A stretch of DNA of 64,000 bases from Acidobacteriota bacterium (GTDB lineage Bacteria > Acidobacteriota > UBA6911): NCBI GenBank assembly GCA_963664705.1, contig OY761556.1, positions 928,001 to 992,000 of the forward strand. The letters run 5' to 3'. The notes below the pieces were generated by a model. It had not been told where the DNA came from. It saw nothing but the letters and a program-made list of their open reading frames with translations, and did no database searches. This document shows, piece after piece, positions 1,089-56,875 of this stretch. The first letter of the stretch is position 1, and every line of letters begins with the position of its first letter. Both the position numbers and the translations under genes were made by a program.

Positions 1089-1090
1089 CT

Positions 1091-39932: not shown

Positions 39933-40027
39933 TTTTCGCTTTATGGACGGTGATGGGATCAGGCCCTCAGAGGCTGCGGATGGAGCGTCCGCTGCTTAAA
40001 CCACAGCCTCTCAGGGACCTGATTCTG

Positions 40028-41062
40028 TTATAGCCGGACGGTATCCTTCCCCTTCTGATTTCCCCTTGAAATCCGGCTGCCCAGCAGATTCAGGCAGAGC
40101 AGCGTTACAAACACCATACCCAGCGGCAGCAGGTTCCACCAGAAATCCGTCAGCACGCGTGCGTCCTTCAGATTCTTCAGCATGGATCCCCAGGATTCTC
40201 CCGCATCATGAAACCCGATGTTTAGGAAAGAGAGGACAACCTCACCCAACAGGAATATGGGAGCGGCCACGACAAGCTGCGAGAGGATAAAGGGGAGAAG
40301 ACCGGGAAACATGTGCCGGCGGAAAATGTGCCATGGAGAAGCGCCAAGCGAATGGGCCGCTTCCACGAAGACGGAATTTCTGAGCTGCAGGATGAGACCG
40401 CGAATGCCGCGCGCCATGGGTGGCCATGCCACGGCGGCAATTGTCCCGACTATCAGAAGCAGGTTTTGCATGAAGGGCATTTTGGCGGGCAGAAAGGCGC
40501 GCAGGGAAAGCACGATGTAGAGGGCCGGCAGCGCCAGCACAAATTCCGAGAAGCGCATCAGGAGTGAATCGATCCAACCGCCGAAAAGCCCGGCCAGTGC
40601 TCCGATGGAAATGCCCAGCGCGGAGTAGAGCAGCAGCCCGAGCAGCATGACGAGAAGCGAAGTCCTGGTTCCCGCCAATACCCGTGCCAGAACGTCGCGC
40701 CCGAAATCATCGGTGCCGGCCGGATAGTAATAGGGCGGCTGGCTTCTTCCCAGGAGATGGCAATTCATGGGAATCAAACCCAGGAGCCGGTAGGAGTATC
40801 CGGAGTAGAAGAACTGCAGAGGATAGGTCTGCTCCGTGTTTTCCTTGTAGCGCGTATCGAGCGGATCCTTCAATTCCATCCGATAGACAAACGGTACCGT
40901 CAGTGCGGTTTGATTGAAGAAGTGCATCCGGTTGGGAGGCTGGAAAAACTGTTCCAGGTTTTGCATCCCCGGCGGATTGGAGGAGAGGAAGTCGGAAAAG
41001 ATGGAAACCAGCACCAGCAGAAGCACGAATCCCGCGGAGAGCCTGAAAGTCAGCGATTTCAT
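40028..41062 (-). CDS. Peptide ABC transporter permease (DppC/OppC)
   Basis: GTDDFGRD, FVEAA.SLGA EAA loop; ATGA overlap with upstream gene. Confidence 0.9.
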   Translation of the reverse strand: MKSLTFRLSAGFVLLLVLVSIFSDFLSSNPPGMQNLEQFFQPPNRMHFFNQTALTVPFVYRMELKDPLDTRYKENTEQTYPLQFFYSGYSYRLLGLIPMNCHLLGRSQPPYYYPAGTDDFGRDVLARVLAGTRTSLLVMLLGLLLYSALGISIGALAGLFGGWIDSLLMRFSEFVLALPALYIVLSLRAFLPAKMPFMQNLLLIVGTIAAVAWPPMARGIRGLILQLRNSVFVEAAHSLGASPWHIFRRHMFPGLLPFILSQLVVAAPIFLLGEVVLSFLNIGFHDAGESWGSMLKNLKDARVLTDFWWNLLPLGMVFVTLLCLNLLGSRISRGNQKGKDTVRL

Positions 41063-42054
41063 CGTATGCCTTTCCGCATCGCGGGACGCGTTCTGGGATC
41101 CAGCGCCAGCATCGCCGTGTCCGCCAGCAGATTTCCCAGGACAAGGAGAAGACTGCTTCCCAGGACGCATCCGGCCAGCAGGAACAGATCGCGGTTGAAG
41201 AGCGCGTCATAGGTGATCTGTCCGAGTCCGGGCCACGAGAAGATGACTTCCAGGACGAGGCTTCCGCTGAGGATTCCCCCGAGCATCGGCCCTGTGATTG
41301 AGAGCACGGGGTTGAGCCCCGGGCGCAGCATGTAATTCAGAAAAATCCGCGAATTTCCCAGGCCTCTGGCTCGTGCGCAGCGCAGGTACAATAAATTGTC
41401 GTGGCTCTGCATGGCGGCGTATTGAATCCGTTCTATATAGGCGAGAACGGGAATGGTCAGGCAGAGCACCGGCAAACACAGGTGGTGGAGCCGATCGATT
41501 GTCCAGTGCAGGATGCCGATCGGCTGATCGGCCAGCGAGTTCATGCCCCCCAGCGGGAACCAGTGCGTGTGCGCGGCAAAGAGTAGCGCCGACAGTCCCA
41601 GTAGAAGGGAAGGGAGTGAAAGTGCGATCGTGGAAAACAGGCTCAGCAGTTTTCCCGGCGCGCGTCTCTCAAACAGGGCGTGAATGGTGCCGGCAAAAAG
41701 CCCGCCGCCGAAGCCGAGAATCAAAGCCGGAATCCCCATCCAGAGAGTGTTGGCCAGGGCGCCGGTGACTACGGAGAAAACGGGGCGCTGGTAGAAGAGG
41801 GATTGTCCCAGGTCCAGGCGCAGAAGCCTGCCGAACCAGCGCGCAAACTGAATGTAGAACGGCGCGTCCAGTCCATATTTATGCCGGAGCTGGCTTACCG
41901 CTTCCTTCTGGATCGATGCATCGACCAGGTGCGTGCTGAAGAAGTCCCCGGGAATAACTGCGGAGAGCCAGAAGGTAAGGAAGGCAACGGCAAAGGAAAG
42001 CAGCAGGAACTGAGCGATTCGTTTCAATAGGAAGGATGAAGTCCCGGTCCGCAT
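41059..42054 (-). CDS. Peptide ABC transporter permease (DppB/OppB)
   Basis: PGD, GLD.P, DLGQS, ARARGL, EVIFSWPGLG. Confidence 0.9.
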   Translation of the reverse strand: MRTGTSSFLLKRIAQFLLLSFAVAFLTFWLSAVIPGDFFSTHLVDASIQKEAVSQLRHKYGLDAPFYIQFARWFGRLLRLDLGQSLFYQRPVFSVVTGALANTLWMGIPALILGFGGGLFAGTIHALFERRAPGKLLSLFSTIALSLPSLLLGLSALLFAAHTHWFPLGGMNSLADQPIGILHWTIDRLHHLCLPVLCLTIPVLAYIERIQYAAMQSHDNLLYLRCARARGLGNSRIFLNYMLRPGLNPVLSITGPMLGGILSGSLVLEVIFSWPGLGQITYDALFNRDLFLLAGCVLGSSLLLVLGNLLADTAMLALDPRTRPAMRKGIR

Positions 42055-42323
42055 CTGTTTTTGCCAATGGCGGCATCTGTTCTGTCCGGGATGCCGGCAC
42101 GCTCCGATTTTTCGTAATTTGCCCGAATTGAAACTCCCATTGTACTAGAAAGCCGTGATTTTCTATAATGGGCTGCCCTTGAATCAACCCCTCGCTTGCA
42201 TCTGTAGTTCCCTCGGAGTGAGGGCGCCCTTTTGAATTTAGACGCGCGATAGCCGTTGGTCTGTGTAACTTCTAAAAATTAGTGTCTTTGCAGTGGCCTG
42301 CCACCATTTGTCAGGGAGCGTCT

Positions 42324-45300
42324 ATGAAGGCAATGACCAAGCACCTCAAGGATGGCTTCAAACTGAATGATCGCTACCAAATTGAAGAAATGCTGGGGAT
42401 TCAGGACATAGGACAGCTTTATCGCTGCAGCGATCGCGCCACGGGGCGGGGTCGGGCGAGATTGCGGATTCTTTTCGGCGAGTCGCTTGGAGTAGCGGAT
42501 ACAGCGGCTATGAGCGGAGCCTTATCGCTGCTTCGCAGATTGCAGCACCCGAATCTGGGGCGCGTCTTGGATTATGGAATCATTAAGGGGTCTCAAGATC
42601 TGTTTGTCGTTCAGGAATGGGTGGATGGCAAGGATATATGGGTTGGAACCGAGGATGTGGAATTTGAAGAGCTGTTGAGTATTTTGATCGATGTCGTTCA
42701 GTCTGTGCATTACTTGCATACACGCGGACTGGTTCACGGCTGTTTGAATTCCTCGAATATCATCCTGGCCAAGAATGGGAAGGGCACGAGGCCAAAGCTG
42801 TTGGATTTCGGCCTGGTGCGAAGCCTTCCGCAGCATGGAGGCAGCAGACTAGGGAATCCCGTGCACTTGGCTCCAGAGCTTTTGTTGGGTGGAGCCGTCA
42901 CCCAAAGCTCCGATCTGTATTCTCTGGGAATCCTGATTTATCAGTTGTTGACGCGCCGGCTTCCTTTCGAAGATGTTGACCCCGGTTTTCTGGTGGAAAA
43001 GCGCCTGCAGGTAAACATCGATCTGAGGCCGATAGGGCGTCTTAAGAATGGCGCCGTATTGAAGGAGATGTTGTGCAATCTGCTGGAAAGAGATGCGGAT
43101 AAACGATCCGGATCCAGTGAGGGCGTCTTACGGGGGTTGATAGAAGTACTTGGACGCGATACATCACGCCGGAATGCCAGGGATTTGCGAAACCTGTTCT
43201 CCTCATCGCGATTCGTCGGCAGGGACAACGAGCAGAGTCTTCTCAAGAAGTGCGCTAGCCAGGTGGAGGTGAACGGGCGAGGGTGGACCGTGTTTGTATC
43301 CGGAGAAGGAGGTTTGGGGAAGAGCAGGCTTTTGGAGGAATTTTCAAGCTGGGCCCGTTTGGAAGGCTGGCGGGTAATTGAAGGAGCCTGCGATACGCGC
43401 CACCAGGAGCCTTACGGGCCCTACCGGCAGATTCTGGCTCAGACGGAATCCATGAGTGGAGAATCCATATTCCGTTTTGAGAATACGTCACGGTCACAGG
43501 AAATGAGATCCTTTGAACCATCTCCTGAGTTTGCTGCCGGCCAGTTCCGGGATCTTCTGACCCGGGAGCTTGTCCGACGGTTGAGCGTGTGCCCAACCTT
43601 GCTTTTACTGCATGACTTTCATTTATCTGATGAGGCTACCAGTACTGTTCTGGACTATCTGAGTTCGGACATTCAGACGCACCCGATATTGATGTGCGTG
43701 AGTCTGAGATCCTGCGAGGACGCAGGTGGAGGAATTAACCGCGCCATAGAGCAGGCTCTGAGGCAGCAGCGGGGCGAGGTTTTGAACCTTGAGCCTCTGG
43801 TTGAAGGTAGTGTAGGTGAGCTTGTGGCCGGGATTACAGGCGATGCCAGGCTTAAAGGTACCCTGGGATCGTGGATGTATAACAATATAGGAGGAAACCC
43901 ATTCTTTATTGAGGAGATGTTGAAGCATCTGGTGGAGCAGGGATTGCTGCGTTGTGAATTGGATCGATTCCGGTTCAGGAATAGGGATTTGCAGAGATTG
44001 GAAGTGCCTGAAACGATTGGAGCGGTACTGCAGCGTCGACTTGTGCACCTGTCTTCAGCAGCGGGAAATCTGGCAAACTGGCTCGCCTTATTTCACCGGC
44101 CGATTACCAAAAGCCTCCTGACATCGATTTTGGAGTGGGAGGATGCGGAGGTAGCCAAAGCTTTGCAGGAGCTGAGGGAACGGCAGTTGGTGCGGATTGA
44201 AATGGGCGATGCGTTTGAAGTTATTGAGTTAGGCCACGTTCTCTTTGCAGAAGTCATTCGAGGGAATTTGCCGAAGGCTAAGCGCTTGAGGATGCATAGA
44301 AAGATAGCCGAGGTTCTGGAGCGGGAATATGGATGCGAAGGGAATCTCCAGGAATTGGCAATGCATGCAATGGAAGGGCGGACGGGGGTCAAGTCTGTCC
44401 GATATGCGCTGACATTGGCGACTCAGTCCCATGCTGAATTTGCCCACGAAAAAGCACTGCAATGCTATGAATATGTGTTTCGTCATCGAGGCGACCTGAC
44501 GGAGGCCGACCTTTGCCAAGCCGCCATCGAAGCCAGCGATACAATGTTTGCACTGGGAATTCCGACCCAAGCTATCAGGCTTTTGAAAAGAGAGATGAAT
44601 TGGTGCGGCAATATCGATCAGGAATTAAGGGCGGGATTGTTGATGCAATTCGCGGTTGCATATAAGCACTTAGGAGATTTGATTCGAAAGGATACATTTT
44701 GTAAAAAGGGGCTTCATTACCTTCGCCATTCACGTTTTGATAAGAATCCAACAAAAGCATTGCTATGGGCCGAACTGGCTTTCAACGCTATGCTACGATC
44801 TAATCCAAAACTTGGACTAAGGTTGTTAAAAAAAGCCCAATCTGCCTGTCCTGAATCCAATTCAGGGATTCTGGCTGGCAGGATACAAAACCTCGCGGCA
44901 TCTCTTCATCGAGTGGCATGCAACTTCCAAAAGGCTCTCATTGCAGGCGAGAAAGCGGTTAGTATTTTTACCAAGTGTGATAGTTCCTTTCTAGTTTGCT
45001 CCGCCTATTCAACTTTGGGCTTGGTTTTAATGGGCCTAGGAAGATTTTCACTTGCCCTAAGAATGCATCAAGATGCTGTCACGGAAAGCGAAAAGAATCG
45101 CTCGGTCGCGCTAAGGGCTCAAGCATCTGCCAATCTACTAGAGTGTTTGTGCAAAATGGGGCGAATGACAGAAGCTGCGGAGTTGGCCGAAAATGCCAGC
45201 GAATATATTTATGGGCTACAGAATCCATCCATAAGAGATGCTTTTATTGTCATCATGGCCGAAATTAAGCTAAACCTTTGCGATTACAGTGGAGCGCTTG

Positions 45301-47693
45301 ATCTGATCAGGCAGTTGGATGAAAAGAGAATTGGGCGTTCAGCCGTGTATATTTCGGGCCATGCTCATTATGTCGCTGCCAGTGCTTTTTTCTATTTGGG
45401 AGATTTTGATTCAGCGATTCATCACATTGAAACAATTTTTTCTGTTCAACGGGCAGAAGCTCCTTTTTATGAGAGAGAGTTGGCCGCTGCGCTGCAGGCC
45501 CGCATTATGTCCGAACGAGGCCTCGCTGATCGTGCAATCAAGCAATTGCGCTCACTTGACAAAACGGTTACCCGAAAAAAGTGGCCTTATCAGATGTGCA
45601 TCATAAAGCTTCACCTAGCTGAAATAATGCTTCGAAAACAGCTCTATGATACTGCCAAAAAATTAGCAAAGAATGCGTTGCGATTGGCAAAGGGTATGCA
45701 TTCCGAATCCCTAATTGGGCAAAGTTACCTTTTGCTTGGGAGTGCATACTCCAGACTTTTTCACTCTAATGATAAGGACAGATTGTATCTTGGTTATGCG
45801 ATAGAGAACCTGCAATTTGTATGCAACTCAAGCGCCTCCGTTTCCAATGAAACTGTTTGGCGAGCCTGTGCAGAATTGAGTTTGATATATGAAGAGTTGG
45901 CAAATTCGAGAAAAAGCGTCGATTATGCGGAAAAAGCGCATAATTGTTTATCTAAAATCGAAAGACGATTGTCGCAGAGGATGCAGGATTCTTATATAAA
46001 CGCATTCGGACGAAATTACCTGAAATCCGAAGTGCTTCGACTTGCTGATCGGCGTGGAAGCTGTCAAACACAAGATAATTCGGGGCCTGGGCTAATTGCG
46101 AGTATCGAGGGTAGAATACTGTTGCGAGTCAGCGCGGCAGTAAACTCAATTCCGGACATAAACCGACTTTTGGAACGAATATTGGATCAGTTGATCCAGG
46201 CTGCAGGACTGGAGCGGGCTTTTGCTTTTCTTGCTGACAGCTCAAACCGAGATCTTTGTTTGGCCAAAGGCAGAAATCACCTAAGAGAGACTATTCAGAA
46301 CGCGGGAGCAACAATCGACACCATTGTTGAGGAGGTGTTTGAACGAGGTCTGCCTATGGTTAGCTCTAATGCACAAATCGATCCGAGATTTAAGGACAAG
46401 GTAAACATGTTGGGGCATCAAGGCGTACTCCTTTGTGCTCCACTAAGAGTAGCCGACAGGATCCTTGGTGTTCTTTATGCAGATCATTCATTGCCAGAGG
46501 AAAACCTTAGCGAGTCAGTGTTTAACCTTTTTGCCGCCTTTTGCAATCTTGCTGGGATAGCTATTGATAACACAATTGTGCATCAGCAATTGGCTCGGGA
46601 AAAGTCGGAGTTGGAAGAGTATTTTCATCTCGCTCGTGGTGAATACCCCGAAATTGTTGGAAAAAGTGCCGTGGTGGAGTCATTGCGTGATCGAATAGGT
46701 ATGGCAGCCCAATCGCCGCTTGATATTTTGGTTATTGGAGAAAGTGGTACGGGGAAGGAACTTGTTGCCAAAGCCATTCATAGCTCAGGAAATAGAAAAA
46801 ATGGGAAATTTATAGCAGTCGATTGTGGCTCGCTTTCTGACACGCTAGCAGAGGCAGAGTTATTTGGCTATCGCAAAGGGGCGTTTACAGGGGCGTTCGA
46901 AAATCGGCCAGGGCTACTTGAGGCAGCTAACGGCGGGATCTTATTTCTGGATGAAATATCGAACATGCCGTTGAAAACACAACCAAAATTATTGCGCGTT
47001 CTTCAGGAAAGGGAAGTTAGGAGAATTGGTGAAACCATAACAAGAAAAGTGGATTTTCAGGTAGTGTCGGCAACCAACAGAGATATTCTACTGGATGTAC
47101 GAGAGGGGAAATTTCGAGAGGATCTATATCATCGTCTGAGAGGAATGGAAATACGCGTGCCCCCATTAAGGGATCGTTTGGGCGACATCCAACTGTTGGT
47201 TGACTGGCATTTGTCGGATATTAACCGAGCAACTAGCAAGAAAAGGAAGTTTTCACAAGAGGCGAGGGAGATCTTATCTAGATATCACTATCCCGGAAAT
47301 ATACGCGAACTCAAGAACGTTGTTGCTGATGCCTATTATTCAGCAAAGGGCGGGCAGATAAGCGTTGGCGATTTGCCAGTCGAGGTCAGGGGAATGCTTT
47401 CGGAAGAGTTCAGTGCCGACAATGGCATTGCTTCGCGGTTATATATTCAAATTGCTGAAGGACGCGGAACCTTTGAAGAATTGGTAAAGAAGCCGTTCAT
47501 TGATCGCCAGTTAAGCCCACCAATACTTCGAAGCATTATTGAGAGGGCGTTGAGGGAGTCAGCGGGGAGCTACAGAAAGGCATTTTCGATTTTAAAAATC
47601 CCCGGGCGGCAGTATTCGCTGACTATCAGATTTTTAAAGCATTATAAGTGCTATTTAAACTACCAGCAGTTCAGACAGCGCGAATATGATTAG
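42324..47693 (+). CDS. Giant sigma54-dependent activator: pseudokinase + STAND-type ATPase + TPR + GAF + AAA+ + atypical C-terminal DNA-binding domain
   Basis: HGCLNSSN/DFG/APE; FVGR, GEGGLGKS, GGNPFFIEE; GAF (GVLYAD); GESGTGKE, GAFTGA, LFLDEI, YPGNIREL. Confidence 0.9.
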   Translation: MKAMTKHLKDGFKLNDRYQIEEMLGIQDIGQLYRCSDRATGRGRARLRILFGESLGVADTAAMSGALSLLRRLQHPNLGRVLDYGIIKGSQDLFVVQEWVDGKDIWVGTEDVEFEELLSILIDVVQSVHYLHTRGLVHGCLNSSNIILAKNGKGTRPKLLDFGLVRSLPQHGGSRLGNPVHLAPELLLGGAVTQSSDLYSLGILIYQLLTRRLPFEDVDPGFLVEKRLQVNIDLRPIGRLKNGAVLKEMLCNLLERDADKRSGSSEGVLRGLIEVLGRDTSRRNARDLRNLFSSSRFVGRDNEQSLLKKCASQVEVNGRGWTVFVSGEGGLGKSRLLEEFSSWARLEGWRVIEGACDTRHQEPYGPYRQILAQTESMSGESIFRFENTSRSQEMRSFEPSPEFAAGQFRDLLTRELVRRLSVCPTLLLLHDFHLSDEATSTVLDYLSSDIQTHPILMCVSLRSCEDAGGGINRAIEQALRQQRGEVLNLEPLVEGSVGELVAGITGDARLKGTLGSWMYNNIGGNPFFIEEMLKHLVEQGLLRCELDRFRFRNRDLQRLEVPETIGAVLQRRLVHLSSAAGNLANWLALFHRPITKSLLTSILEWEDAEVAKALQELRERQLVRIEMGDAFEVIELGHVLFAEVIRGNLPKAKRLRMHRKIAEVLEREYGCEGNLQELAMHAMEGRTGVKSVRYALTLATQSHAEFAHEKALQCYEYVFRHRGDLTEADLCQAAIEASDTMFALGIPTQAIRLLKREMNWCGNIDQELRAGLLMQFAVAYKHLGDLIRKDTFCKKGLHYLRHSRFDKNPTKALLWAELAFNAMLRSNPKLGLRLLKKAQSACPESNSGILAGRIQNLAASLHRVACNFQKALIAGEKAVSIFTKCDSSFLVCSAYSTLGLVLMGLGRFSLALRMHQDAVTESEKNRSVALRAQASANLLECLCKMGRMTEAAELAENASEYIYGLQNPSIRDAFIVIMAEIKLNLCDYSGALDLIRQLDEKRIGRSAVYISGHAHYVAASAFFYLGDFDSAIHHIETIFSVQRAEAPFYERELAAALQARIMSERGLADRAIKQLRSLDKTVTRKKWPYQMCIIKLHLAEIMLRKQLYDTAKKLAKNALRLAKGMHSESLIGQSYLLLGSAYSRLFHSNDKDRLYLGYAIENLQFVCNSSASVSNETVWRACAELSLIYEELANSRKSVDYAEKAHNCLSKIERRLSQRMQDSYINAFGRNYLKSEVLRLADRRGSCQTQDNSGPGLIASIEGRILLRVSAAVNSIPDINRLLERILDQLIQAAGLERAFAFLADSSNRDLCLAKGRNHLRETIQNAGATIDTIVEEVFERGLPMVSSNAQIDPRFKDKVNMLGHQGVLLCAPLRVADRILGVLYADHSLPEENLSESVFNLFAAFCNLAGIAIDNTIVHQQLAREKSELEEYFHLARGEYPEIVGKSAVVESLRDRIGMAAQSPLDILVIGESGTGKELVAKAIHSSGNRKNGKFIAVDCGSLSDTLAEAELFGYRKGAFTGAFENRPGLLEAANGGILFLDEISNMPLKTQPKLLRVLQEREVRRIGETITRKVDFQVVSATNRDILLDVREGKFREDLYHRLRGMEIRVPPLRDRLGDIQLLVDWHLSDINRATSKKRKFSQEAREILSRYHYPGNIRELKNVVADAYYSAKGGQISVGDLPVEVRGMLSEEFSADNGIASRLYIQIAEGRGTFEELVKKPFIDRQLSPPILRSIIERALRESAGSYRKAFSILKIPGRQYSLTIRFLKHYKCYLNYQQFRQREYD

Positions 47694-47704
47694 TCTTTCG
47701 ATGC

Positions 47705-50095
47705 CTATGCGCGATAAAAATCGATAACGTTTGTATCCAATGTGAATTTTTGAAGAATGCCCGATCGAAGGTTTTCCTGTGCAGAATGCAAAAGTGATAA
47801 AATTGTAGCTCCATCTTTGGGGTAGAATGAAATTCCTATTTGGCAGTCAATAGAAAAACCCTGTCCAATCGTCGGGCGGTTGCCTCTTATCTGCTGTTTC
47901 AATCGTTGAGCGCAACGTAATGCCTGGTCATCCCTGACGCCTGGGAGAAAGACAACAAATCCCTGAGCCCCATAGCAAACAAGAATGTCACTTTCTCGCA
48001 GTTCAGGCTTAATGCTATCCGCAATTTTTTTGAAAACTGAATCAGCCAAATTAGAACCAAAATTCCGTACAATCTGGGGAAGATTTCTGATCTCAATATA
48101 TATTAGCGAAATTGGTGTTCTGTTTTCAGCGGCTGCAGATATCAGTTGCGGGCCGACTGCGGCTAAATATGAGATTCTGCAAAGGCCGGTGACTGGATCA
48201 ATAGTATCACTAGAGGTTTTACTATCCTCGTTGGCTGCATCTGCGAAAAGAGGCGCAATAACATTTGCCACGGTTTGCAGGACTGCAAGGTGGTTCTCAG
48301 TGTAGGAGATTGGATCTTGTCCGTAGAGTGAGAGCGTTCCAAGGCATTCGTCTTCTTTGGTTATGGGCACGACAAGTGTATCGCTAAATGAGAACTGTGA
48401 TTCCCCTGGCGTTCCCTGGAAATCGAGCGCCGGCCCCGTGTTGATCATTGGGCGCTTATGTGCCGCCACCCACCCGCTGATTCCCTTTCCAACCTCCATT
48501 TCTCTGTTTTGAAGTGATTCTGAGAACATTCCGCTAACATATGTAGCCGAAATTTTGTTTTCGGAATTGCATATGAAGAAGGCGCAGGTGGAATATGGGA
48601 CCAAAGCTTTCAGTCGCTGCGCCAGGATGGAAAGAACATCGTTTAGGCGCAAGTGCCCGGAGATTGTACTGCAAAGCTCCGTTAATTGAATTAGCTCGGC
48701 TGGTATGTCCAAACTTGACTTGGCGGTTTTGGTGGCGATATCTGGCTCACTTGTTTCCGAATACTTTCGGAATGACAACTGCGGTGCATTCTCGGATTCC
48801 TTTAGTGCCGCTTGTTCCAGTTCATCAATGTGTTTTGTGAAAATGTCGACAAGGTGTGGATCATAGACCGTCCCCGCCTGATTGCGCAAAATCTCAGCCG
48901 CTTCATCTTTGCCAATAGGCAGTTTATAGGGACGAGAGAACCGGATTGCATCAAAAGCGTCAGAAATTGCAAGAATCCTTGCCCCCAAGGGAATATCCTC
49001 ACCCTTTAGGCCATCCGGATATCCTAGTCCATCCCAGCGCTCATGATGTGAACGAACATATTTTGCCACAGGATATGGGAATCTTACTTGTTGAAGAATC
49101 TCATCTCCCGCAATGGAATGAACCTTGATCTTTTCAAATTCTTTTTTTGAAAGCCGTCCAGGTTTGTTTAGGATATAGTCGTCAATAGCAATCTTTCCTA
49201 TGTCATGAAGCAGCGATCCGGTTTCAATTGCTCGTAACTCATCTGGCTCCCTAATTCCACAAAGTTTAGCCAACCCCATCGCATAAATCTTTACTCGACG
49301 AATATGGCCATAGGTTGTTTGATCTTTTGCATCAACGGCAAGTGCTAATGATTCAACCGTGCGCAGGTACAATTGCTCTTGTTCTTTTAGATGGTCCTGC
49401 GCCTCTGCAACCCTGCTTTTATTGATCTGGTTCCATCCCCAAACAATGCCTATGATTGGTATCGCGGCGAATGCAGCCCAAGAGCCTAGCCATTGGTATA
49501 AAACAGCCATCACTGCAGCACACATTCCTGAAAGAGAGTAATCCATAGAGAGTGGGACACAAGTTTTGGCCCAAAATCTAAAGACACTTTCATCTGATGA
49601 CCATGCGATGGCAGTTGATGTGGAAATCGAGTTAAACAGGAAGAAGCTAAGAGTTAGAAGTGCGGCGGGAACAACAATATCAATTGGTTTGGCGCTGAAT
49701 TGGTGAATGCTTTGATAGATTGAACTGTAGATCCAAGCCCCACACGTGGTGCTTGCAACGTTAAATGCAACCCTATGGGCGTAGACTTTGGGCTTCTGTG
49801 AGACAATCGAGATAATGAGAATGTATACAAAAGTGCCAATAACACATGGTGCGGTTCCATATATCATGGCTATTGCCATGATATATGAATCACCTACTGT
49901 AATTGCAGCTTTGAAATGAGGCAGGTGCAGAAAACAAAAGATGGTAACAAGGGCAACCGCAAGGAGAATCAGCCATCGACTATCATATCCTCCTTTTGAG
50001 AGCTTAATGCCGGCCCAGAGCAATATAGGTATGGCTGAACAAACCAATAGACCTATATATAGCCTTAACTTTGATGGAAGATCTGCCCATGCCAT
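47705..50095 (-). CDS. Membrane-bound HD-GYP phosphodiesterase with GAF and degenerate GGDEF domains
   Basis: About 6-7 N-terminal TMs; DAKD.TT.GH, LLHDIGK, HHERWDG.GYP; GISGWVA (GAF); GAQGF in place of GGDEF. Confidence 0.92.
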   Translation of the reverse strand: MAWADLPSKLRLYIGLLVCSAIPILLWAGIKLSKGGYDSRWLILLAVALVTIFCFLHLPHFKAAITVGDSYIMAIAMIYGTAPCVIGTFVYILIISIVSQKPKVYAHRVAFNVASTTCGAWIYSSIYQSIHQFSAKPIDIVVPAALLTLSFFLFNSISTSTAIAWSSDESVFRFWAKTCVPLSMDYSLSGMCAAVMAVLYQWLGSWAAFAAIPIIGIVWGWNQINKSRVAEAQDHLKEQEQLYLRTVESLALAVDAKDQTTYGHIRRVKIYAMGLAKLCGIREPDELRAIETGSLLHDIGKIAIDDYILNKPGRLSKKEFEKIKVHSIAGDEILQQVRFPYPVAKYVRSHHERWDGLGYPDGLKGEDIPLGARILAISDAFDAIRFSRPYKLPIGKDEAAEILRNQAGTVYDPHLVDIFTKHIDELEQAALKESENAPQLSFRKYSETSEPDIATKTAKSSLDIPAELIQLTELCSTISGHLRLNDVLSILAQRLKALVPYSTCAFFICNSENKISATYVSGMFSESLQNREMEVGKGISGWVAAHKRPMINTGPALDFQGTPGESQFSFSDTLVVPITKEDECLGTLSLYGQDPISYTENHLAVLQTVANVIAPLFADAANEDSKTSSDTIDPVTGLCRISYLAAVGPQLISAAAENRTPISLIYIEIRNLPQIVRNFGSNLADSVFKKIADSIKPELRESDILVCYGAQGFVVFLPGVRDDQALRCAQRLKQQIRGNRPTIGQGFSIDCQIGISFYPKDGATILSLLHSAQENLRSGILQKFTLDTNVIDFYRA

Positions 50096-50161
50096 GATTA
50101 TCTTCTACTTAAATCAGTAGCCTACCAAATCATGTATCGGCAAAAAACCACCTAATCTTAA

Positions 50162-50192
50162 CCTGCAATTAGGGTTAAAACCTAATTGCAGG
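50162..50192 (-). terminator. 12-bp hairpin downstream of micro-peptide ORF
   Basis: CCTGCAATTAGG-GTTAAAA-CCTAATTGCAGG; T-run follows shortly on the minus strand. Confidence 0.6.
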
Positions 50193-50235
50193 CCATTTAA
50201 TCAAATTCATCTAGTTTGCTGCTAGAATGAGAATA

Positions 50236-50298
50236 CTAGCCAACCCAAATAATCATAGGGGTTTCACGGGATTCGAGAATTTCGATATCGGTCTGCAT
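50236..50298 (-). CDS. 20-aa putative precursor peptide MQTDIEILESRETPMIIWVG
   Basis: GGAG RBS 5 nt before ATG; acidic leader-like part + hydrophobic Trp tail; co-oriented with the RRE-M50-HlyD and HD-GYP genes. Confidence 0.65.
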   Translation of the reverse strand: MQTDIEILESRETPMIIWVG

Positions 50299-50359
50299 TT
50301 TATCTCCAAATATCTGAATGGGTTGTGTTTAAAAAAACAACACAATACTCTTGCCGCTG

Positions 50360-50407
50360 TCACAGCCAGAGAATTGCACTCGCCATAGCAGTCTCCTCTT
50401 TAATCAT
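50360..50407 (-). CDS. Second micro-ORF (MIKEETA)MASAILWL
   Basis: ATG 50407, or ATG 50386 with GAGGAG 6 nt upstream; ETxM..I(I/L)W resembles the neighbouring peptide. Confidence 0.4.
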   Translation of the reverse strand: MIKEETAMASAILWL

Positions 50408-50869
50408 TGAATGAACATCCCTCTCTCGATATAGCTCGACCGATCCCAAAGACACCCCAAAAAACCAGGCGCCATTCGGGCCACTTCCAAAGCAATGCCA
50501 CTCACACCGGTTATGAAACCGATATGCAATACGTAAAACAAGCGCGGCTTACTTCTTCAGCTTCGCTCTTACTCAAATTGGGAAAAGCATTCAACCCACA
50601 CCCAAAAGGGCACGGCCTGAACACTCGTCAAGGTGAGAGAGCTATTCGAGAAATTGCTGATCACTCACCGCAACCAAGAACCAGGAGCTAGGTTTCCTGA
50701 TCCCCGGCATTTTACTGTACAACAGACTCTTTGATAAACCAGACCGTAGCAGGGCTTACAGTCTAGTGTCAACAAAATTCTAATTTCTTTTAAAGTTTTC
50801 AGGCTTGTTGCCGACCGTTCCAGGACTAGGTTCGACGCCGTCTCCAAATCGCCCGTCATCCGCCAAATC

Positions 50870-53242
50870 CTAGGGCAGATATTCCCAGAACTCTGTCCGG
50901 AGCCATCGGATCGCCCGCCGGGAGGCGATCTCGTAAATGCTTCTCTTGCCGCAGCGTATCTTTCCGACTCCTGTCATCCCCGCGCGCAAACTGCCGTCCG
51001 GGTTTGGCAACTCCCCCTGAACCGTCACGGTCTTCTGGTTGCCGCCCGAGGTCGCAACCGGGGCAATGCTTCGCACATGCGCTTCATACCAGCGGCGGGG
51101 ATACCCGCGCACTTTTATCGTAATGGGATAGCCCAAATGGATGTCCCCAATTTCCTTCTCCGGAACCGGCATCTCGACAATCATGGTCGAATTGCTGACG
51201 ATTTCGCAGAAGACATTCCCCTTGTCGAGGAAATCGCCGATCCTGTTGTGCAGATACGAAGTCGCCACCGTCCCGTCAATGGGACTCCGGATCTTCATCA
51301 ATTCTACCTGGCGGTCCAGGATCCGGAGCTTCTCTTCAAGCTTGTCCACCTGCGATTCCACCGCCCGGATCGATTCCTTCCGTGCGCCCGCCAGCAGTAT
51401 CTTCAGTTCGCTATGCGCCTGCGCCAGTTCTTTCTTTTTGACGTCCCTGTTCCGCTCGATCTGCTCTTCGAGAACGCTTAATTGCCCTTTGGCCGCCGAA
51501 ACTTCCTTTTGCTGCACTTCATAGGCGGTCCGGTCTCTGTCTACTTCATTCCGCGGGATCAGCTGCGCCTTCAGCAGGTTCTGCGCCCGCTCATAATTCA
51601 ACCTGGCATTGGCAAGCTCCGCTTCTTTTTTGGCCATGGTGTCCCGAAGCACCGCCCGTTCCTGGTCAACCTTGCCGATGCTGGCCAGTTCCGCATTTTT
51701 GGTTTCGATCAGACTTCTGGCTTTCTCGATTTCCTCGGGCCGCGTTCCTGCATTCAACAAATCCAGCGAGGCCTTTTGCGCCTGCAGCTCGCCTTTGACA
51801 TCCTCATAGCTGTTCGACAGCTCGAGGTTTTCGATTTCCGCGAGTACATCACCCGCGCGCACCTGGCTCCCCTGTTCGACATAGATCTTCTTGAGATTGC
51901 CCAGAACTTCCGGCGTTACCGACACTCTCCTGGAGGCGAGCATCGTAAAATCGCCGGATACCTTCATTTCCCAGGGCAGAAAGCCGGCCAGCAGGACCAG
52001 GAGGAGCAGAACCAGGATCAGAGGATTTTTTCGAAAACGTACAATCACCGCTTTGGTCACCTTCCCGGAAGCAGCTACATTATCCCTGCTCGCGACTGGA
52101 ACCGTCATAAAAAAAAGCGCCGAGATCAAAACCACGCCCCACGACTGATATTCTTCCACAAACCAGGCGCCCAGCCTCTGAAACATCACCCAGATGATCA
52201 GCAGCGTAAACAGAGAAGACGCGCTTCCGTAAATAAAAAACAACCGCTTCTCTCTGCGGCTCAGCATCTGTTCAGCGGAAGAACGACTCCCGGTCAGCAG
52301 CGAAAGGAGCCGGTTTTTCACATAGGCAAGGGCCTTCGGTCGCAGGTTCGGCACTTCGATGAGATCGCTCAGGAAATAGTAGCCGTCCAAACGGATCAAT
52401 GGATTGAAGTTGAGAATGGTCTGAATCGCGTTGAATGCTATCGCGATCAGGCATATCCGGCTTGCAAGCGTTTCCGTCGCCAGGAGTCTCCAGCCAATCG
52501 TTGCGATGGCCCAGAGAATGACCTGCGCATAGGCGCCGGCAAGTGTGATCCGGATCCGTTCTCTCTTTTTCAGCAGCCAGGCATCACTGACATTGCAGTA
52601 GAAAGCCGGAATAAAATAGAGGATCAGGAACCCCATCTCGGTTACCTTGCCTCCAAAATGCTTGAGGGCAAGGCCGTGGGCAAACTCATGAATGGTCATG
52701 ATCGCAAAGATGACAACCAATGCCGTCGGGATGGAGGAAATGGTAAAAATGGCTCCCATCGAGAGAAACAGGGACTCGCTGTTTAGTATCGAAATGATGG
52801 CGGATACGAGCGCTGCGATCCACACCAGCGCTGAAAAGGCGGGGGCAAAGCAGAAGCGCAGCCTGCGCTCCAACCGGGTGAGAAGCTGGTCCGGGTTAAA
52901 GGCGTGGATTTTGATCGACAGCAGACTTCGGATGATCGTTCGTTTTCTTGCGGCCGCGCCGCTCAGCTTATTCCAGCAGTATGGGTGATCCAGGAGCAGC
53001 AGCGCCTGCAGTTTTCCCAGGAATTCCCGCAACTGCTCTTCCGTGACAGGCGTCTGGTGCTTCTCGGTGACCTGGGCCGCGATGGCAGGCAGATCATTCT
53101 GCCCGTTCAAAAGATCAAGAACGGAAGCCTGCACCGGCGTGAATCGATAAAAGCGCAGAGTAACCGGATCTTTTACAACGACACCGGCATTCTGTTCCGA
53201 ACGAATGTCCAGATCCGATCGCAGCTTCGCATGATTCGCCAT
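50870..53242 (-). CDS. PqqD/RRE-like domain + M50 intramembrane metalloprotease + HlyD-type membrane fusion protein
   Basis: VVKDP.T.RFYRF..wHTH; HEFAH, NFNPLIRLDGY; lipoyl-like GSQVRAGDVL, long coiled coil, IRSPIDG, LRAGMTG. Confidence 0.88.
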   Translation of the reverse strand: MANHAKLRSDLDIRSEQNAGVVVKDPVTLRFYRFTPVQASVLDLLNGQNDLPAIAAQVTEKHQTPVTEEQLREFLGKLQALLLLDHPYCWNKLSGAAARKRTIIRSLLSIKIHAFNPDQLLTRLERRLRFCFAPAFSALVWIAALVSAIISILNSESLFLSMGAIFTISSIPTALVVIFAIMTIHEFAHGLALKHFGGKVTEMGFLILYFIPAFYCNVSDAWLLKKRERIRITLAGAYAQVILWAIATIGWRLLATETLASRICLIAIAFNAIQTILNFNPLIRLDGYYFLSDLIEVPNLRPKALAYVKNRLLSLLTGSRSSAEQMLSRREKRLFFIYGSASSLFTLLIIWVMFQRLGAWFVEEYQSWGVVLISALFFMTVPVASRDNVAASGKVTKAVIVRFRKNPLILVLLLLVLLAGFLPWEMKVSGDFTMLASRRVSVTPEVLGNLKKIYVEQGSQVRAGDVLAEIENLELSNSYEDVKGELQAQKASLDLLNAGTRPEEIEKARSLIETKNAELASIGKVDQERAVLRDTMAKKEAELANARLNYERAQNLLKAQLIPRNEVDRDRTAYEVQQKEVSAAKGQLSVLEEQIERNRDVKKKELAQAHSELKILLAGARKESIRAVESQVDKLEEKLRILDRQVELMKIRSPIDGTVATSYLHNRIGDFLDKGNVFCEIVSNSTMIVEMPVPEKEIGDIHLGYPITIKVRGYPRRWYEAHVRSIAPVATSGGNQKTVTVQGELPNPDGSLRAGMTGVGKIRCGKRSIYEIASRRAIRWLRTEFWEYLP

Positions 53243-53439
53243 CTCGAGCCTCTGTACAGAGATACGGGGGCTAGATTTCAGTATGGATGCGCATCATAGT
53301 GTTAGATGCGGGCAATTGCAATGGGAATGAATTCCTATTTCGGTCCCGCCGCGGGACGCAGCTTCAAATTGACTGACCGGGTCGAGTGCTGTATAAAGAT
53401 TGGTTCGAACTAATCTAGGAAAGCCGCAAAAGGAGAATT

Positions 53440-54282
53440 ATGCTATTCAAAAAAGGTATCTTGGTTTTCATGGTGCTGGCCGTGGCTGTTGCGTTGTGCG
53501 GTTGTGGAAAAAAGTCTGAAGAGTCGCAGGGAGAAACCGCCGCGCCCGCAAAAGCTGTGGTAAACCCGGGGGAAATGGTTTTGATTCCTGCCGGCGAATT
53601 CATAATGGGCAGCAATATCAAGGGTAGCGACGGCAAAGAAACCCTTGCCTTTCCGGAACACAAAATGAATTTGCCCGCCTACTGGATTGATAAATATGAA
53701 GTAACAAACTTCCAGATGCTCGATTTCGCCATTAAAGAAAAATATACCGGCGAAGGCGCCAAAGAGGGAAAAGACTGGAGACTCTTTGCTACTCCGGACA
53801 AAGCGCTGGTCCCCGTTCAATATGTCACCTTCAACGATGCCCAAGCGTACTGCAAGTCCGTAGGGAAGAGACTTCCTACGGAAGCCGAGTGGGAAAAAGC
53901 CGCGCGCGGTGCGGATGGGAAAGCCTATCCCTGGGGGAATGAATGGGTAGACGGCCGCAGCAATACCGCCGAAACCGGACTTCTGAAGCCCGCTAATGTG
54001 GGCGAGTACGACGACGTGAGCCAGTATGGTGCCCACGATATGCTGGGCAATGTGCGGGAATGGACTTCGACCCCGTTTGAACTCTATGCCGGAAATACCG
54101 CCAAAAACCCGGGCAAAGGACGCTTTGTTGTCCGCGGCCTGTCCCCGAACCACAAGGGCAAAATGGCTCACCTGTGGGATCGCGACGGATATCCCGCCGC
54201 ATTTCTTGGCGATGTAGGCTTCCGTTGCGCCAAGGATGCAACTCCGGAAGATGCCGCCAAGGCTGCCGCACCGGCCAAGTAA
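53440..54282 (+). CDS. FGE-sulfatase (SUMF1/PvdO-like) domain lipoprotein
   Basis: Lipobox LCGC; IPAGEFIMGS, RLPTEAEWEKAARG, DMLGNV.EW, GFRCA. Confidence 0.88.
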   Translation: MLFKKGILVFMVLAVAVALCGCGKKSEESQGETAAPAKAVVNPGEMVLIPAGEFIMGSNIKGSDGKETLAFPEHKMNLPAYWIDKYEVTNFQMLDFAIKEKYTGEGAKEGKDWRLFATPDKALVPVQYVTFNDAQAYCKSVGKRLPTEAEWEKAARGADGKAYPWGNEWVDGRSNTAETGLLKPANVGEYDDVSQYGAHDMLGNVREWTSTPFELYAGNTAKNPGKGRFVVRGLSPNHKGKMAHLWDRDGYPAAFLGDVGFRCAKDATPEDAAKAAAPAK

Positions 54283-54307
54283 AAATCGCTTTTCCTGTCT
54301 AAAACCA

Positions 54308-54338
54308 AAAAGGCTCAAGGAATCTCCTTGAGCCTTTC
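54308..54338. terminator. Bidirectional terminator
   Basis: AAAGGCTCAAGG/CCTTGAGCCTTT with A/T flanks. Confidence 0.8.
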
Positions 54339-54361
54339 GATTTTTATGGACAGCAAAAGAG

Positions 54362-55552
54362 CTAGAGCGCCCGCAAAAAGAAACACTTCAAATAGTGTGT
54401 TTCCGGCATCCCCGCCAGAATGGGATGATCACTGGCCTGGCTTCTGCGTTCGATGACCTGCACCTGCCGGCGCGCATCCTGCGCGGCCTCGCAGATCACG
54501 CCGAAAAAATCGTCCTCCAGCATGTGGTAGGAACAGCTCGAAGTGATGAGTATCCCCTCTGGTCGCAGCAGCTTCAGTGCCCGCAGATTTATTTCCTTAT
54601 AGCCGCTGCGGGCCCCCGCGAGTGCCTTGCGATTTTTGGCGAACGCGGGCGGATCCAGGCAAATCAGATCAAACAGCCGGCCGGCACTTTCCAGATCGCG
54701 CAGATAATCAAACACATTGGCTTCCACATACTCGATATTCCGGATTCCATTGAGCTCGCCGTTCCGGCGCGCCTGCACCAGCGAATCCTGCGAGATGTCC
54801 ACCGCCAACACCGATTCGCAGTTGGGCGCAAATTGAAGTGCAAACGCTCCCGTGTTGGTGAAGCAATCCAGAACCTGGCCGGAGGCGTACCTTCCTGCCT
54901 CCACCCTGTTCTGGCTTTGATCCAGGAAGAAACCGGTCTTTTGACCGTGGAGAAGATTTACGGACAGGCGTATGGCGCCTTCTTGGATAATGACTTCTTC
55001 CGGAATGCTGCCCCACACGACGCCGCTGGTCTCTTCGAGGCCTTCCAGTCTGCGTGCTTTCACATCGTTTCTTTCCATGATGCCTGACGGACTCACAATT
55101 TCCTTCAGCAGGTCAATCAGCAGGGGCTTTAGCGCATCAGCCCCGCTTGAAAGAGTTTGAAGTGCAAGGTAGTCGCCGTACCGGTCAATAATGATTCCCG
55201 GCAGCAGATCTCCTTCGCCAAAAACGAGGCGGCCTGCGGACGATGAGCCAAACTGGATTTGCCGGCGGGCAATGGAATGGAGGATTCGGTCTCGAAAGAA
55301 CTCTCGGCTGAGCGGTTCCGCATCCCGCGATAGCATGCGCAGGCGTATTTGCGATTCCCGGCTGTAAAAGGCATAGCCAAGAATATTCCCGGCCGCATCC
55401 ACGATTTGAACGATCGGAGGATTGCCTTCCACCTTTTCTTTCGCAACATCCCCGGCATAAATCCAGAGGTGTCCACGTCGAATGCGGCGGATGCCCGCCG
55501 GCGTTATCTGAACCTTATTGCTGACCGTGAATGGATTCAATGAGGACTCCAT
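54362..55552 (-). CDS. rlmI: 23S rRNA m5C1962 methyltransferase-like
   Basis: GHLWIY PUA, EGDLLPG..IDRY, GQKTGFFLDQ, LDPPAF, SSCS. Confidence 0.85.
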   Translation of the reverse strand: MESSLNPFTVSNKVQITPAGIRRIRRGHLWIYAGDVAKEKVEGNPPIVQIVDAAGNILGYAFYSRESQIRLRMLSRDAEPLSREFFRDRILHSIARRQIQFGSSSAGRLVFGEGDLLPGIIIDRYGDYLALQTLSSGADALKPLLIDLLKEIVSPSGIMERNDVKARRLEGLEETSGVVWGSIPEEVIIQEGAIRLSVNLLHGQKTGFFLDQSQNRVEAGRYASGQVLDCFTNTGAFALQFAPNCESVLAVDISQDSLVQARRNGELNGIRNIEYVEANVFDYLRDLESAGRLFDLICLDPPAFAKNRKALAGARSGYKEINLRALKLLRPEGILITSSCSYHMLEDDFFGVICEAAQDARRQVQVIERRSQASDHPILAGMPETHYLKCFFLRAL

Positions 55553-55564
55553 GTTCTTTGTAAG

Positions 55565-56875
55565 TTAATCCGCTTCAGAGTTCGGTGGAAACGCAGCCCG
55601 GACGTGCGCCATCGCCTCTTCACGACTGCGAATCGTCCCTTCAATCTGCAGGTCTTCAATTGCGCGGAGAATCGTTTTGAACAGCGGGCCGGGCGTGTAC
55701 CCCATGCCGATAAGATCCTCCCCGCTCAGCAAAGGCGCCGGGATCGGATGTTTCTCATATTGCGCCAGCTTTTCGATACAGAATCTGTAAGTGTCGATGC
55801 TTCGGCCGCCGCTCAGCCTGTCTACTCGATGGAGCTCGAGGTGAGATTCGATATCGGGCCGGTGCAGCAGCCTGTACAGCTCACTTTCCCGCAGCTCGCG
55901 CACTCTTCTGAACCGGCTGTGCATTGCCACCAGATCCACAATTTGGATCGTTTCCTCATTGGACAATCGCAGGCGGCGACAGATCGACTCCGCGATTCTG
56001 CTGCCCAATTCCGCATGTCTTTTGAGCAAATCCGGACTTCCCGAAGCGATAGCCTGTGGCTTGCCGACGTCGTGGAGCAAGGCTCCAAAGGCCAGGACCA
56101 GCGAAGGTTTTCGCAATAATTCGAGGAGGCGCCGGGTGTGCGCCAGAACGTCCTCCTGCGATTTCGACTGAAACGAGGTTGGGACTTCCCGCAGGGCATC
56201 GATTTCGGGCAAGACATATTTCAATATGCCGCTGGATTGGAGCAGGTCCAGACCCTGACTCGGCGCAGATCCAGTGAGGATCCGCGTCAGTTCATCCCGT
56301 ATGCGCTCCCAACTGACCTGTAGAATCTGCGGGGCCGACTCCTGGATCGCGATCCAGGTTTCCGGCACGATTGCAAACCCTAGCGTACACGAAAACCGCA
56401 GTGCGCGAAGCATGCGCAGCTTATCTTCGGAGAAGCGCAGCCCGGGATCTCCGATGGTCCGGATCAAACCGGACTCCAGATCCCTCCTGCCCTGAACATA
56501 GTCGATAATGCGGTCGTCGATGGGATCAAAAAAGAGACCATTGATGGTGAAGTCCCGTCGCAGGGCATCCTGTTCCGGTCCGTCGAAGGTGACCGCGGTC
56601 GGATGTCTTCCATCCAGATACTCGTGATCACTGCGAAAAGTTGCGACTTCGTAGAAGTGGCCGTACATCGGCACCTGGACGACGCCAAATTGCGCGCCGA
56701 TCAGGCGTGATCTCGGGAACAGCCGGTGCACTGCTTCCGGAAGGGCGCTGGTGGCAATGTCAATATCCTTGGGTTTTCGGTTCAGGAGATAATCCCGTAC
56801 CCAGCCTCCGGCAAAGAACGCCGCATGTCCATGAAGACGAAGTTTTTCCACAATGCGGCGGGCGGCTGTTCTCAT
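55565..56875 (-). CDS. cca: CCA tRNA nucleotidyltransferase (HD domain)
   Basis: GGWVRD...KDIDIAT, EVATFR, RRDFTIN, EDKLRMLRA, LLHDVGK. Confidence 0.88.
   Translation of the reverse strand: MRTAARRIVEKLRLHGHAAFFAGGWVRDYLLNRKPKDIDIATSALPEAVHRLFPRSRLIGAQFGVVQVPMYGHFYEVATFRSDHEYLDGRHPTAVTFDGPEQDALRRDFTINGLFFDPIDDRIIDYVQGRRDLESGLIRTIGDPGLRFSEDKLRMLRALRFSCTLGFAIVPETWIAIQESAPQILQVSWERIRDELTRILTGSAPSQGLDLLQSSGILKYVLPEIDALREVPTSFQSKSQEDVLAHTRRLLELLRKPSLVLAFGALLHDVGKPQAIASGSPDLLKRHAELGSRIAESICRRLRLSNEETIQIVDLVAMHSRFRRVRELRESELYRLLHRPDIESHLELHRVDRLSGGRSIDTYRFCIEKLAQYEKHPIPAPLLSGEDLIGMGYTPGPLFKTILRAIEDLQIEGTIRSREEAMAHVRAAFPPNSEAD

Follow-up and report, generated by a model that had tools for sequence, protein, structure and literature searches.

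A minus-strand cassette in an Acidobacteriota genome couples a predicted leader peptidase/exporter to two micro-open reading frames (micro-ORFs) and a membrane-bound HD-GYP protein. It lies in the window, a 64,000-nt stretch covering positions 928001-992000 of G000:C1, a 6.89-Mb single-contig genome; coordinates are given in window numbering unless prefixed G000 (same genome) or L (loci, for the most part of relatives). From comparative sequence evidence, we give about even chances to the reading that a strain-specific peptide signal is read by the MASE9 membrane domain of the HD-GYP protein and converted to a change in cyclic di-GMP (c-di-GMP).

The gene order and strands given in a preliminary description of this DNA are borne out by ORF and domain scans. 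The minus strand carries the gene for a 790-aa RRE-M50-HlyD protein (53242-50870), the predicted leader peptidase/exporter, in which RRE is the recognition element of RiPPs (peptides synthesised ribosomally and modified post-translationally). This is followed by ORF A (50386-50360), ORF B (50298-50236), a hairpin (50195-50159), and the gene for a 796-aa MASE9-HD-GYP-GAF-GGDEF(degenerate) protein (50095-47705), a predicted c-di-GMP phosphodiesterase and the likely peptide receptor. On the plus strand, a 1789-aa pseudokinase-STAND-TPR-GAF-sigma54 AAA+ activator (42324-47693) runs towards the HD-GYP gene. The preliminary description missed MASE9 as the identity of the membrane domain, the GAF domain, the degenerate GGDEF domain, a conserved promoter, and an upstream structured RNA. 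Its overall interpretation is partly supported: comparative evidence favours the pairing of precursor, protease, and receptor, and gives no support to the activator as receptor, a conserved sigma54 promoter, or dppBC as a fixed part. Relatives with names, sharing 52-72% protease identity, are all Acidobacteriota.

Both micro-ORFs are, on comparative evidence, real coding elements. ORF A encodes the leaderless 8-aa peptide MASAILWL behind the ribosome-binding site (RBS) GAGGAG, while ORF B (RBS GGAG) encodes the 20-aa precursor MQTDIEILESRETPMIIWVG, which consists of a conserved leader (residues 1-14) and a variable core, MIIWVG (residues 15-20). ORF A is present in 26 of 30 family loci and ORF B in 21, and eight of the nine ORF B absences are contig ends, 231-728 nt past the M50 stop. 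The stop codon of ORF A swaps among loci (TAG 12, TAA 11, TGA 9; 32 of 33 loci). Third positions of ORF B codons 1-14 hold 1504 of the 2020 pairwise base differences, in loci chosen by peptide pattern, a choice that depresses amino-acid changes and leaves stop-codon exchange unaffected. Back-translation of the leader gave a pattern found in 39 of 51 family genomes and its reversed control in none, so the micro-ORF conservation on which the preliminary description depended is found in homologous loci. By chance, only 4 of 1669 ORFs of 7-11 aa with an RBS and ATG in the whole genome end hydrophobic-hydrophobic-Trp. Another ORF resembling ORF A, at G000:246855, falls within murD in a different frame and was discarded as chance.

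The two peptides differ in how they vary. The C-terminus of ORF A, [AG]ILW[LF], is nearly invariant, and equivalents of 7-10 aa precede MASE9-HD-GYP genes across the phylum. Family cores of ORF B end in T, Y, A, G, M, L, I, and other residues, with Gly in the window, and hold no conserved Cys. ORF order and copy number vary among relatives, with up to five tandem copies of ORF B. The ORF B leader is acidic and RRE-type rather than Sec-type, and ORF A has no leader. The least probable reading considered here is that the micro-ORFs are regulatory upstream ORFs, for example in tryptophan-sensing attenuation, or hitch-hikers with no role as ligands. Their place upstream of the HD-GYP gene and the invariant Trp codon would suit this, and the housekeeping neighbours rlmI, cca, and nfu are equally syntenic within the family. 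However, the motif is kept as protein in the tails of secreted proteases, ORF B carries the leader of the protease family, and the cassette recurs with different flanks (L225, L232, L238), its ORF order and copy number varying as described.

MASE9 is the likely receptor of the variable core, as judged by how the two segregate. Sister loci with different cores have diverged in MASE9: the M50 domains of L032 (core SVLWM) and L033 (core CILWG) are 90-96% identical and their MASE9 domains 51%, with corresponding values of 89-90% and 40% for L240 and L241. Sisters with like cores keep their MASE9 (L036/L038/L047, 84-92%), and distant genomes with like cores share 54-66% MASE9 identity (L032/L241 66%, L032/L044 63%); L034 and L049, both frameshifted, have the same core and 64%. 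Across 23 loci MASE9 sequences cluster by core, and the HD sequences of these proteins cluster by genus. Approximately unbiased (AU) tests reject three lineage groups for MASE9 (p 8e-6, 0.0015, 8e-8) and two peptide groups for HD (p 3e-35, 0.007). The groups were picked after the identities were seen, the LG+G4 trees were quick ones, frameshifts led to the removal of L034 and L049, and L240 was no more than 49% filled. Of five predictions written beforehand four could be scored, and three of these came true, the loci joining the WY-core clade as expected (support 100, four genera). The GC content at third codon positions is 0.42 in the HD-GYP gene and 0.39-0.41 in the 3' half of the activator, compared with 0.59-0.72 in flanking genes, which fits a swapped cassette. 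The trees, AU tests, and predictions thus lend comparative support to the HD-GYP membrane domain as receptor, which had been proposed at the outset.

The membrane domain matches MASE9 (PF20972) at 23.9 bits, below the cut-off of 24.3 (E 4.5e-5), and the eight-helix pattern and the architecture agree. HD_5 matches with 117 bits, and the motifs HDIGK (25/25 loci), GYP (25/25), and HHE (24/25) are kept; MASE9-HD-GYP is a predicted c-di-GMP phosphodiesterase on these motifs. In the GGDEF domain the motif is replaced (YGAQG in the window, YGxQG-type in relatives) and the diguanylate cyclase signature is lost. An AlphaFold2 (AF2) model of MASE9 (mean predicted confidence, pLDDT, 88) aligned best with NikM/CbiM (Z 14.9, root-mean-square deviation 3.1, 180 residues). 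Six-helix S-components of energy-coupling factor (ECF) transporters align to residues ~33-205 at Z 10-13; helical folds may reach such values through common arrangement, but the NikM and S-component matches exceed the next family at Z 9.2. Foldseek returned no match at E ≤0.001 for this model or that of the protease. The modelled likeness to ECF S-components/NikM/CbiM (PDB 4m5b, 4huq, 5kbw) consists of a six-helix core and an extra N-terminal helix. MASE9 differs in having one more C-terminal helix, a charge bias to the opposite orientation, a fused signalling enzyme, and only 7-15% identity, and a shared fold shows no function.

In S-components, according to the accessible text of a published account, both termini lie inside, the pocket is near the outside, and the loop between helices 1 and 2 forms the lid (PMC3971661). 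Lys/Arg counts over 22 MASE9 sequences assigned the N-terminus, loops 55-68, 98-109, and 164-180, and the C-terminus to the inside. Because one helix is added at each end, the model and the positive-inside rule together suggest that the S-component-like core is probably inverted, with its pocket open to the cytoplasm. This fits the expectation of ligand binding within the membrane in the available part of a paper on MASE9-HD-GYP proteins (10.1101/2021.11.05.467447), and would explain both a leaderless peptide and an optional importer. Sensing by the HD-GYP membrane domain, as first described, is therefore kept in so far as co-segregation makes MASE9 the likely receptor, and modified in that the pocket probably faces the cytoplasm and not the outside. 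Co-folding the MASE9 alignment with the 41-residue Trp-repeat tail of an S8 protease of the same genome scored 0.02 against a mark of 0.32, which is evidence neither way. Family MASE9 domains begin with a conserved M-x-W on the predicted pocket side (50086-50095, minus strand). By analogy with the N-terminus of NikM, this could presumably be a tethered Trp plug that is displaced by the peptide, which is speculation.

The predicted maturase comprises an RRE (residues ~1-95), an M50 site-2 protease with HEFAH at 185-189 and NxxPxxxxDG at 278-287, and a HlyD-type adaptor (~420-790) with HlyD_D23/HlyD_3 Pfam matches. The zinc motif residues H185, E186, H189, N278, P281, D286, and G287 are invariant in 15 of 15 orthologues, which give matches below cut-off to the M50 (15/15) and PqqD (8/15) profiles. 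The daptide_HExxH family NF041824 scores 220.8 bits, below its cut-off of 300. The AF2 model resembles, at E >0.001, the site-2 protease 3b4r and the RREs TbiB1 and 6jx3 (lasso B1 RRE), with template modelling scores on the RRE targets of 0.75-0.78. A full or near-full orthologue is found in 35 of 36 family genomes.

The leader of ORF B appears to be a property of this protease. A GTDB scan yielded 80 loci (L160-L239), 16 of them close relatives and 64 distant. Small ORFs with an E-x-L-E-x-R-I-A-P leader occur at 41 of the 64 distant RRE-M50(-HlyD) loci, spanning Verrucomicrobiota, Gemmatimonadota, Rokubacteria, Planctomycetota, Zixibacteria, Bacteroidota, and others. Their cores are unrelated, mostly Gly/Ser/Asn/Pro-rich. 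As the leader is common to distant protease loci without an HD-GYP gene, it belongs to the protease family and not to the sensor. In the accessible part of the daptide report, the leader ELExMEAP has as its last residue a Pro at position -1, and an RRE-fused intramembrane peptidase cleaves it off (10.1101/2023.03.08.531785). The ORF B family leader aligns with this daptide leader, and by analogy we infer a cut after Pro14 that would free MIIWVG. The shared leader and the alignment give comparative support to the original suggestion that ORF B is the RRE-M50 substrate, cut after ETP.

The cross-phylum leadered ORFs look like a peptide export or RiPP class of their own, undescribed so far. Those with Gly/Ser/Asn/Pro/His-rich cores include L176, L180, L183, L191, L196, L199, L221, L224, L229, L235, and ~30 more of L160-L239, and some of the distant loci also carry GAF-HlyD partners or a FemAB/GNAT gene. 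In Zixibacteria, L235:12488-13584 holds four near-identical leadered ORFs, three with SRWGxD-type cores, 3' of M50-HlyD, with a sigma54 regulator nearby and no HD-GYP.

The kinship of the protease raises an alternative in which cells would export the core as an effector, whether membrane-active, antimicrobial, or surface-coating, and MASE9-HD-GYP would be an epipeptide-like self-protection or stress sensor. The closest curated families, NF041824 (daptide) and NF058609 (YydH/LiaK), make membrane-active RiPPs, the cores are hydrophobic, and tandem copies would raise the dose. On the other side, the cores have only 5-9 residues, no tailoring enzyme or immunity transporter is nearby, and next to this sensor the Trp motif turns up again in leaderless ORFs and in the tails of S8 proteases. 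We judge an effector clearly unlikely.

The recurrence of the motif beside MASE9 supports the signalling reading from outside the family. At 13 of 24 distant MASE9-HD-GYP loci (35-46% identity), an ORF with a Trp-repeat tail and/or an 8-9 aa hydrophobic-hydrophobic-Trp ORF lies just upstream. In all nine of these 13 loci that were re-fetched, the ORF with the tail encodes an S8 protease, and a sigma54 activator adjoins eight of the nine and dpp genes two. The only other MASE9 protein in the genome is a histidine kinase (G000:3831-5450), with two S8 proteases upstream that end in GVLWGD and AILWGD repeat tails. This second Trp-peptide locus runs across the contig origin (G000:C1:6890987-6894879 and 1-5450; L263, L264) and comprises a dppA orthologue, an Hpt protein, the two tandem S8 genes, and the MASE9-histidine kinase. 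The dppA, 65% identical, lies at G000:C1:6890987-6892738, just upstream of the proteases. Because the same pairing is seen in distant loci and within this genome, two unrelated proteases, M50 and S8, seem to alternate beside one motif and one sensor. The presence of the motif in a free 20-aa precursor here argues against the S8 tails being merely structural. In G031 (L298) both peptide genes remain with the HD-GYP gene after separation from M50, and the M50 form recurs with other flanks in the Terriglobia loci L225, L238, and L232, of which L225 and L238 are near-identical and count once. By this distribution the Trp motif belongs to the sensor.

Three side observations concern these loci. In L245:1-4341 and G031 (L298), where the peptide and HD-GYP genes stand apart from M50, insertion-sequence-like ORFs lie between the peptides and HD-GYP. 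Directly 3' of the MASE9-histidine kinase gene are an Amidase_2 gene and then a volactin-family gene (G000:C1:5621-7777; L263). A third S8 protease with a GVLWGD tail (G000:C1:4642708-4644666; L274) has no MASE9 beside it and lies ~8 kb from a nifA-nifHDKEN-like cluster, the names being read from translations.

Several points weigh against a signal read by MASE9, beginning with the late choice of groups for the AU tests. When peptides were compared with domains in a partial Mantel test across the family (24 loci), the correlations were weak and unspecific (rho 0.19 for MASE9, p 0.026; RRE 0.21; housekeeping rlmI 0.16), and the prediction for L245 failed by identity, its top three neighbours carrying SVLW cores. 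ORF B directly adjoins the start of the MASE9 coding sequence; a single tract of recombination would carry the two along whatever their function, and linkage alone would suffice. Function is nevertheless suggested by the limits of the exchanged block, which takes in neither the HD domain nor the protease, much as in agr cassettes. No peptide lies within 1.5 kb at 11 of the 24 distant MASE9-HD-GYP loci. The leadered core of L225/L238, SGSLAVDK, has no Trp, which tells against ORF B acting universally. The cluster itself encodes neither an exporter ATPase nor an outer-membrane channel, and an inward-facing pocket is also compatible with a purely intracellular loop.

The last two points lead to the main rival, a cell-internal loop with the same parts, which we judge less probable than not but substantial. 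Both peptides would act on the inward MASE9 pocket in the producer, and M50-HlyD would remove or secrete the ligand to end the signal, so that the circuit reports the state of the envelope or secretion and not density. Consistent with this, the pocket is predicted to be cytoplasmic, ORF A has no export signal, the cluster lacks a transporter ATPase, dppABC is optional, and riboswitch feedback works without neighbours. However, the core and MASE9 diversify and move jointly between lineages, which is expected of signals exposed to competitors. In addition, the alternative maturase, an S8 protease, starts with a signal-like N-terminal segment, and the precursors are amplified up to five-fold.

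The link to c-di-GMP proposed in the preliminary description is supported by what precedes the micro-ORFs in other lineages. A structured non-coding RNA, a candidate cis-regulator defined by conservation and covariation, lies at 50664-50542 on the minus strand and folds as an extended rod in which one unpaired segment hardly varies, whereas a covarying hairpin does. Eight of 19 pairs changed on both sides, and 0 of 500 shuffles reached the score, with slid controls at ≤0.12 compared with 0.31, subject to the relatedness of the sequences. A single copy of the RNA is present in each of 31 out of 50 family genomes and in none of 86 others, and 17 of 17 metagenome matches precede micro-ORFs. Rfam gave no match to the RNA at E ≤1 over 39000-56000 and none at gathering score in 20 loci, only chance-level E values of 1.6-7.9. 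No known riboswitch was found in the window or the family, in searches one of which had a control that also gave nothing. In other lineages of Terriglobia, tandem c-di-GMP-I riboswitches precede ORF A in the RNA's place (L225, L238, L232, L203), and a single one precedes the S8 gene of L251; there were none in 10 other scanned loci. This positional replacement makes the RNA a candidate c-di-GMP-responsive element; a protein-binding or stabilising leader is an equally possible alternative. A riboswitch expression platform was considered and is unsupported, as an alternative terminator-like stem beat shuffles in 3 of 25 loci and an outer closing stem in 15 of 25.

Further upstream is a probable sigma70-type promoter of the peptide transcript (50740-50769, minus strand), recognised from conservation, with a TTGACA -35 and an extended -10. 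The TTGACA is conserved in at least 90% of aligned loci and lies upstream of 16 of the 17 metagenome copies of the RNA; the promoter is absent from the consensus promoter-scan list. No conserved sigma54 (-24/-12) site was found in 30 family intergenic regions or beside the activator, whose targets may lie elsewhere. A sigma54 promoter for the cassette is thus not supported in this family, a probable sigma70-type one standing instead. The hairpin between ORF B and the HD-GYP gene is stable (z -4.7; 0 of 200 shuffles as good); its sequence is not conserved in aligned loci, and it has no U-tract and is not terminator-like.

The activator is linked to the cassette only by co-occurrence, adjoining also L225, L232, and L238 in addition to the S8-type loci. 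It matches Sigma54_activat at 215 bits and keeps its Walker motifs, and GAFTGA is present in 19 of the 22 loci covered and GS[FY]TGA in three. A Pfam scan gave no HTH_8 match, and the kinase catalytic Asp is lost in most loci. The preliminary description had also offered the activator as peptide receptor, in an arrangement in which the TPR-STAND protein senses the peptide in the manner of RRNPP regulators and HD-GYP is an output gene. Its TPR is the most variable region (mean identity 36%) with low third-position GC, the protein accompanies 8 of 9 S8-type loci, and L244 (core TIVWY) falls outside its genus when TPR sequences are compared, though not with AAA sequences. Against this, the TPR tree of 20 loci follows lineage except for L244 and keeps L032 and L033 together (support 100) despite their different cores. 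The family also has no conserved sigma54 promoter, and S8-tail proteases precede MASE9 proteins with other outputs. Since the TPR mostly follows lineage and not peptide, the activator is very unlikely to sense the variable core. It may still sense the ORF A peptide, whose invariance puts it beyond an assessment by co-variation.

Of the other neighbours, the peptide-import permease genes dppB and dppC (40028-42054, minus strand) are an optional satellite. Among 16 family loci that include this flank, nine have the full dppABC set beside the activator. In the window dppA is missing, and a fixed place for dppBC in the system is not supported. An FGE-fold lipoprotein (53440-54282, plus strand), divergent from the M50 gene, has the inactive paralogue SUMF2 as its best match. 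Although syntenic in 28 of 30 loci (≤1.5 kb), it is absent from L031, L240, L241, and the distant cassettes, and was rejected as a part of the system. One short contig (run X5) fuses 53443 to 49888; as a single record, this may be a strain rearrangement or a chimera. Among contigs from two runs, which say nothing about expression, one covers the stretch without any difference and may be the source of this DNA.

If the signalling reading is right, the leader of the 20-aa precursor would be gripped by the RRE and cut by M50 after Pro14. The core would then probably leave by way of the HlyD adaptor, together with a TolC-type channel whose gene would lie elsewhere. Freed MIIWVG would bind its cognate MASE9 and switch the HD-GYP phosphodiesterase, thereby setting c-di-GMP. 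As the inverted pocket would be reached from the cytoplasm or the inner leaflet, an exported signal would act after re-entry, by Dpp import or membrane partition, as in RRNPP signalling. The invariant ORF A peptide is probably a ligand within the same cell, either a basal agonist or antagonist or the ligand of the activator. The 5' RNA probably ties peptide synthesis to c-di-GMP or another cue and so closes a feedback loop, and the sigma54 activator would be a regular companion.

A bolder version, which we consider rather unlikely, is a phylum-wide, pherotype-specific peptide quorum system in diderms. Interchangeable maturases, RRE-M50-HlyD or Trp-tailed S8, would supply hydrophobic-hydrophobic-Trp peptides to a receptor with an inverted vitamin-transporter fold and direct control of c-di-GMP, the RNA would be a new c-di-GMP riboswitch class closing the loop, and RRE-M50-HlyD would be an undescribed cross-phylum export route. 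No description of a peptide-MASE9 system was found in the literature searched, which largely left out subscription journals; supplements of the daptide (RRE family datasets) and HD-GYP papers may list this family. The Streptomyces peptide VdfS, considered as a lead, brought up nothing relevant in that literature. If the signalling reading is true, the orphan MASE9 sensor gains a concrete ligand with cognate and non-cognate pairs. Pherotype-style peptide signalling would also extend to an abundant, mostly uncultured diderm phylum, with the peptide coupled directly to c-di-GMP breakdown. Two by-products stand alone, namely the structured RNA in place of tandem c-di-GMP riboswitches and a cross-phylum leader family marking RRE-M50-HlyD substrates.

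Among known systems, TM1467/HdgA-type MASE9-HD-GYP(-GAF-GGDEF) proteins share the architecture, with an eight-helix sensor and a short intramembrane hairpin (10.1101/2021.11.05.467447, accessible part). The text available from that paper names no MASE9 ligand, whereas we put forward a candidate for it, along with a fold resembling ECF S-components and an inverted topology. The likeness to MpaA/MpaP of the daptides, as far as the available daptide text describes them, lies in the leader and in the RRE-fused intramembrane site-2 protease with its fold matches and invariant HExxH and NxxPxxxxDG. The locus is not a daptide cluster, because it has neither tailoring enzymes nor the C-terminal Thr that is invariant in daptide precursors. 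As the preliminary description had noted, no such enzymes are nearby: no DUF-RRE, dehydrogenase, aminotransferase, or methyltransferase gene was found among the ORFs of 36000-60000 or in 20 family loci. The NF041823 profile gave no match genome-wide, nor did its positive control. In contrast to the daptides, the window system also has an extra HlyD adaptor, a Trp core of 5-9 residues, a c-di-GMP enzyme as partner, and a diderm host.

Staphylococcal agr and Bacillus ComQXP combine a membrane peptidase, a tiny precursor, and a membrane receptor, and swap peptide and sensor domain as a block. The window system likewise appears to exchange peptide and sensor domain together, with the caveat of linkage, but has no thiolactone Cys and no prenyltransferase, uses RRE-guided processing, and has HD-GYP as output in place of a histidine kinase-response regulator pair. 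In RRNPP/Eep pheromone systems, a short hydrophobic linear peptide is matured by an M50-type protease, optionally re-imported by Opp/Dpp, and sensed in the cytoplasm. The hydrophobic linear peptide, M50 maturation, optional Dpp, TPR protein next door, and probable sensing from the cytoplasmic side all recall this arrangement. The precursor here, however, has no Sec signal, the co-varying partner is a membrane domain and not the TPR protein, and the host is diderm. Judged from its sequences, the system would work like agr or RRNPP signalling while belonging to neither of these, nor to the daptides.

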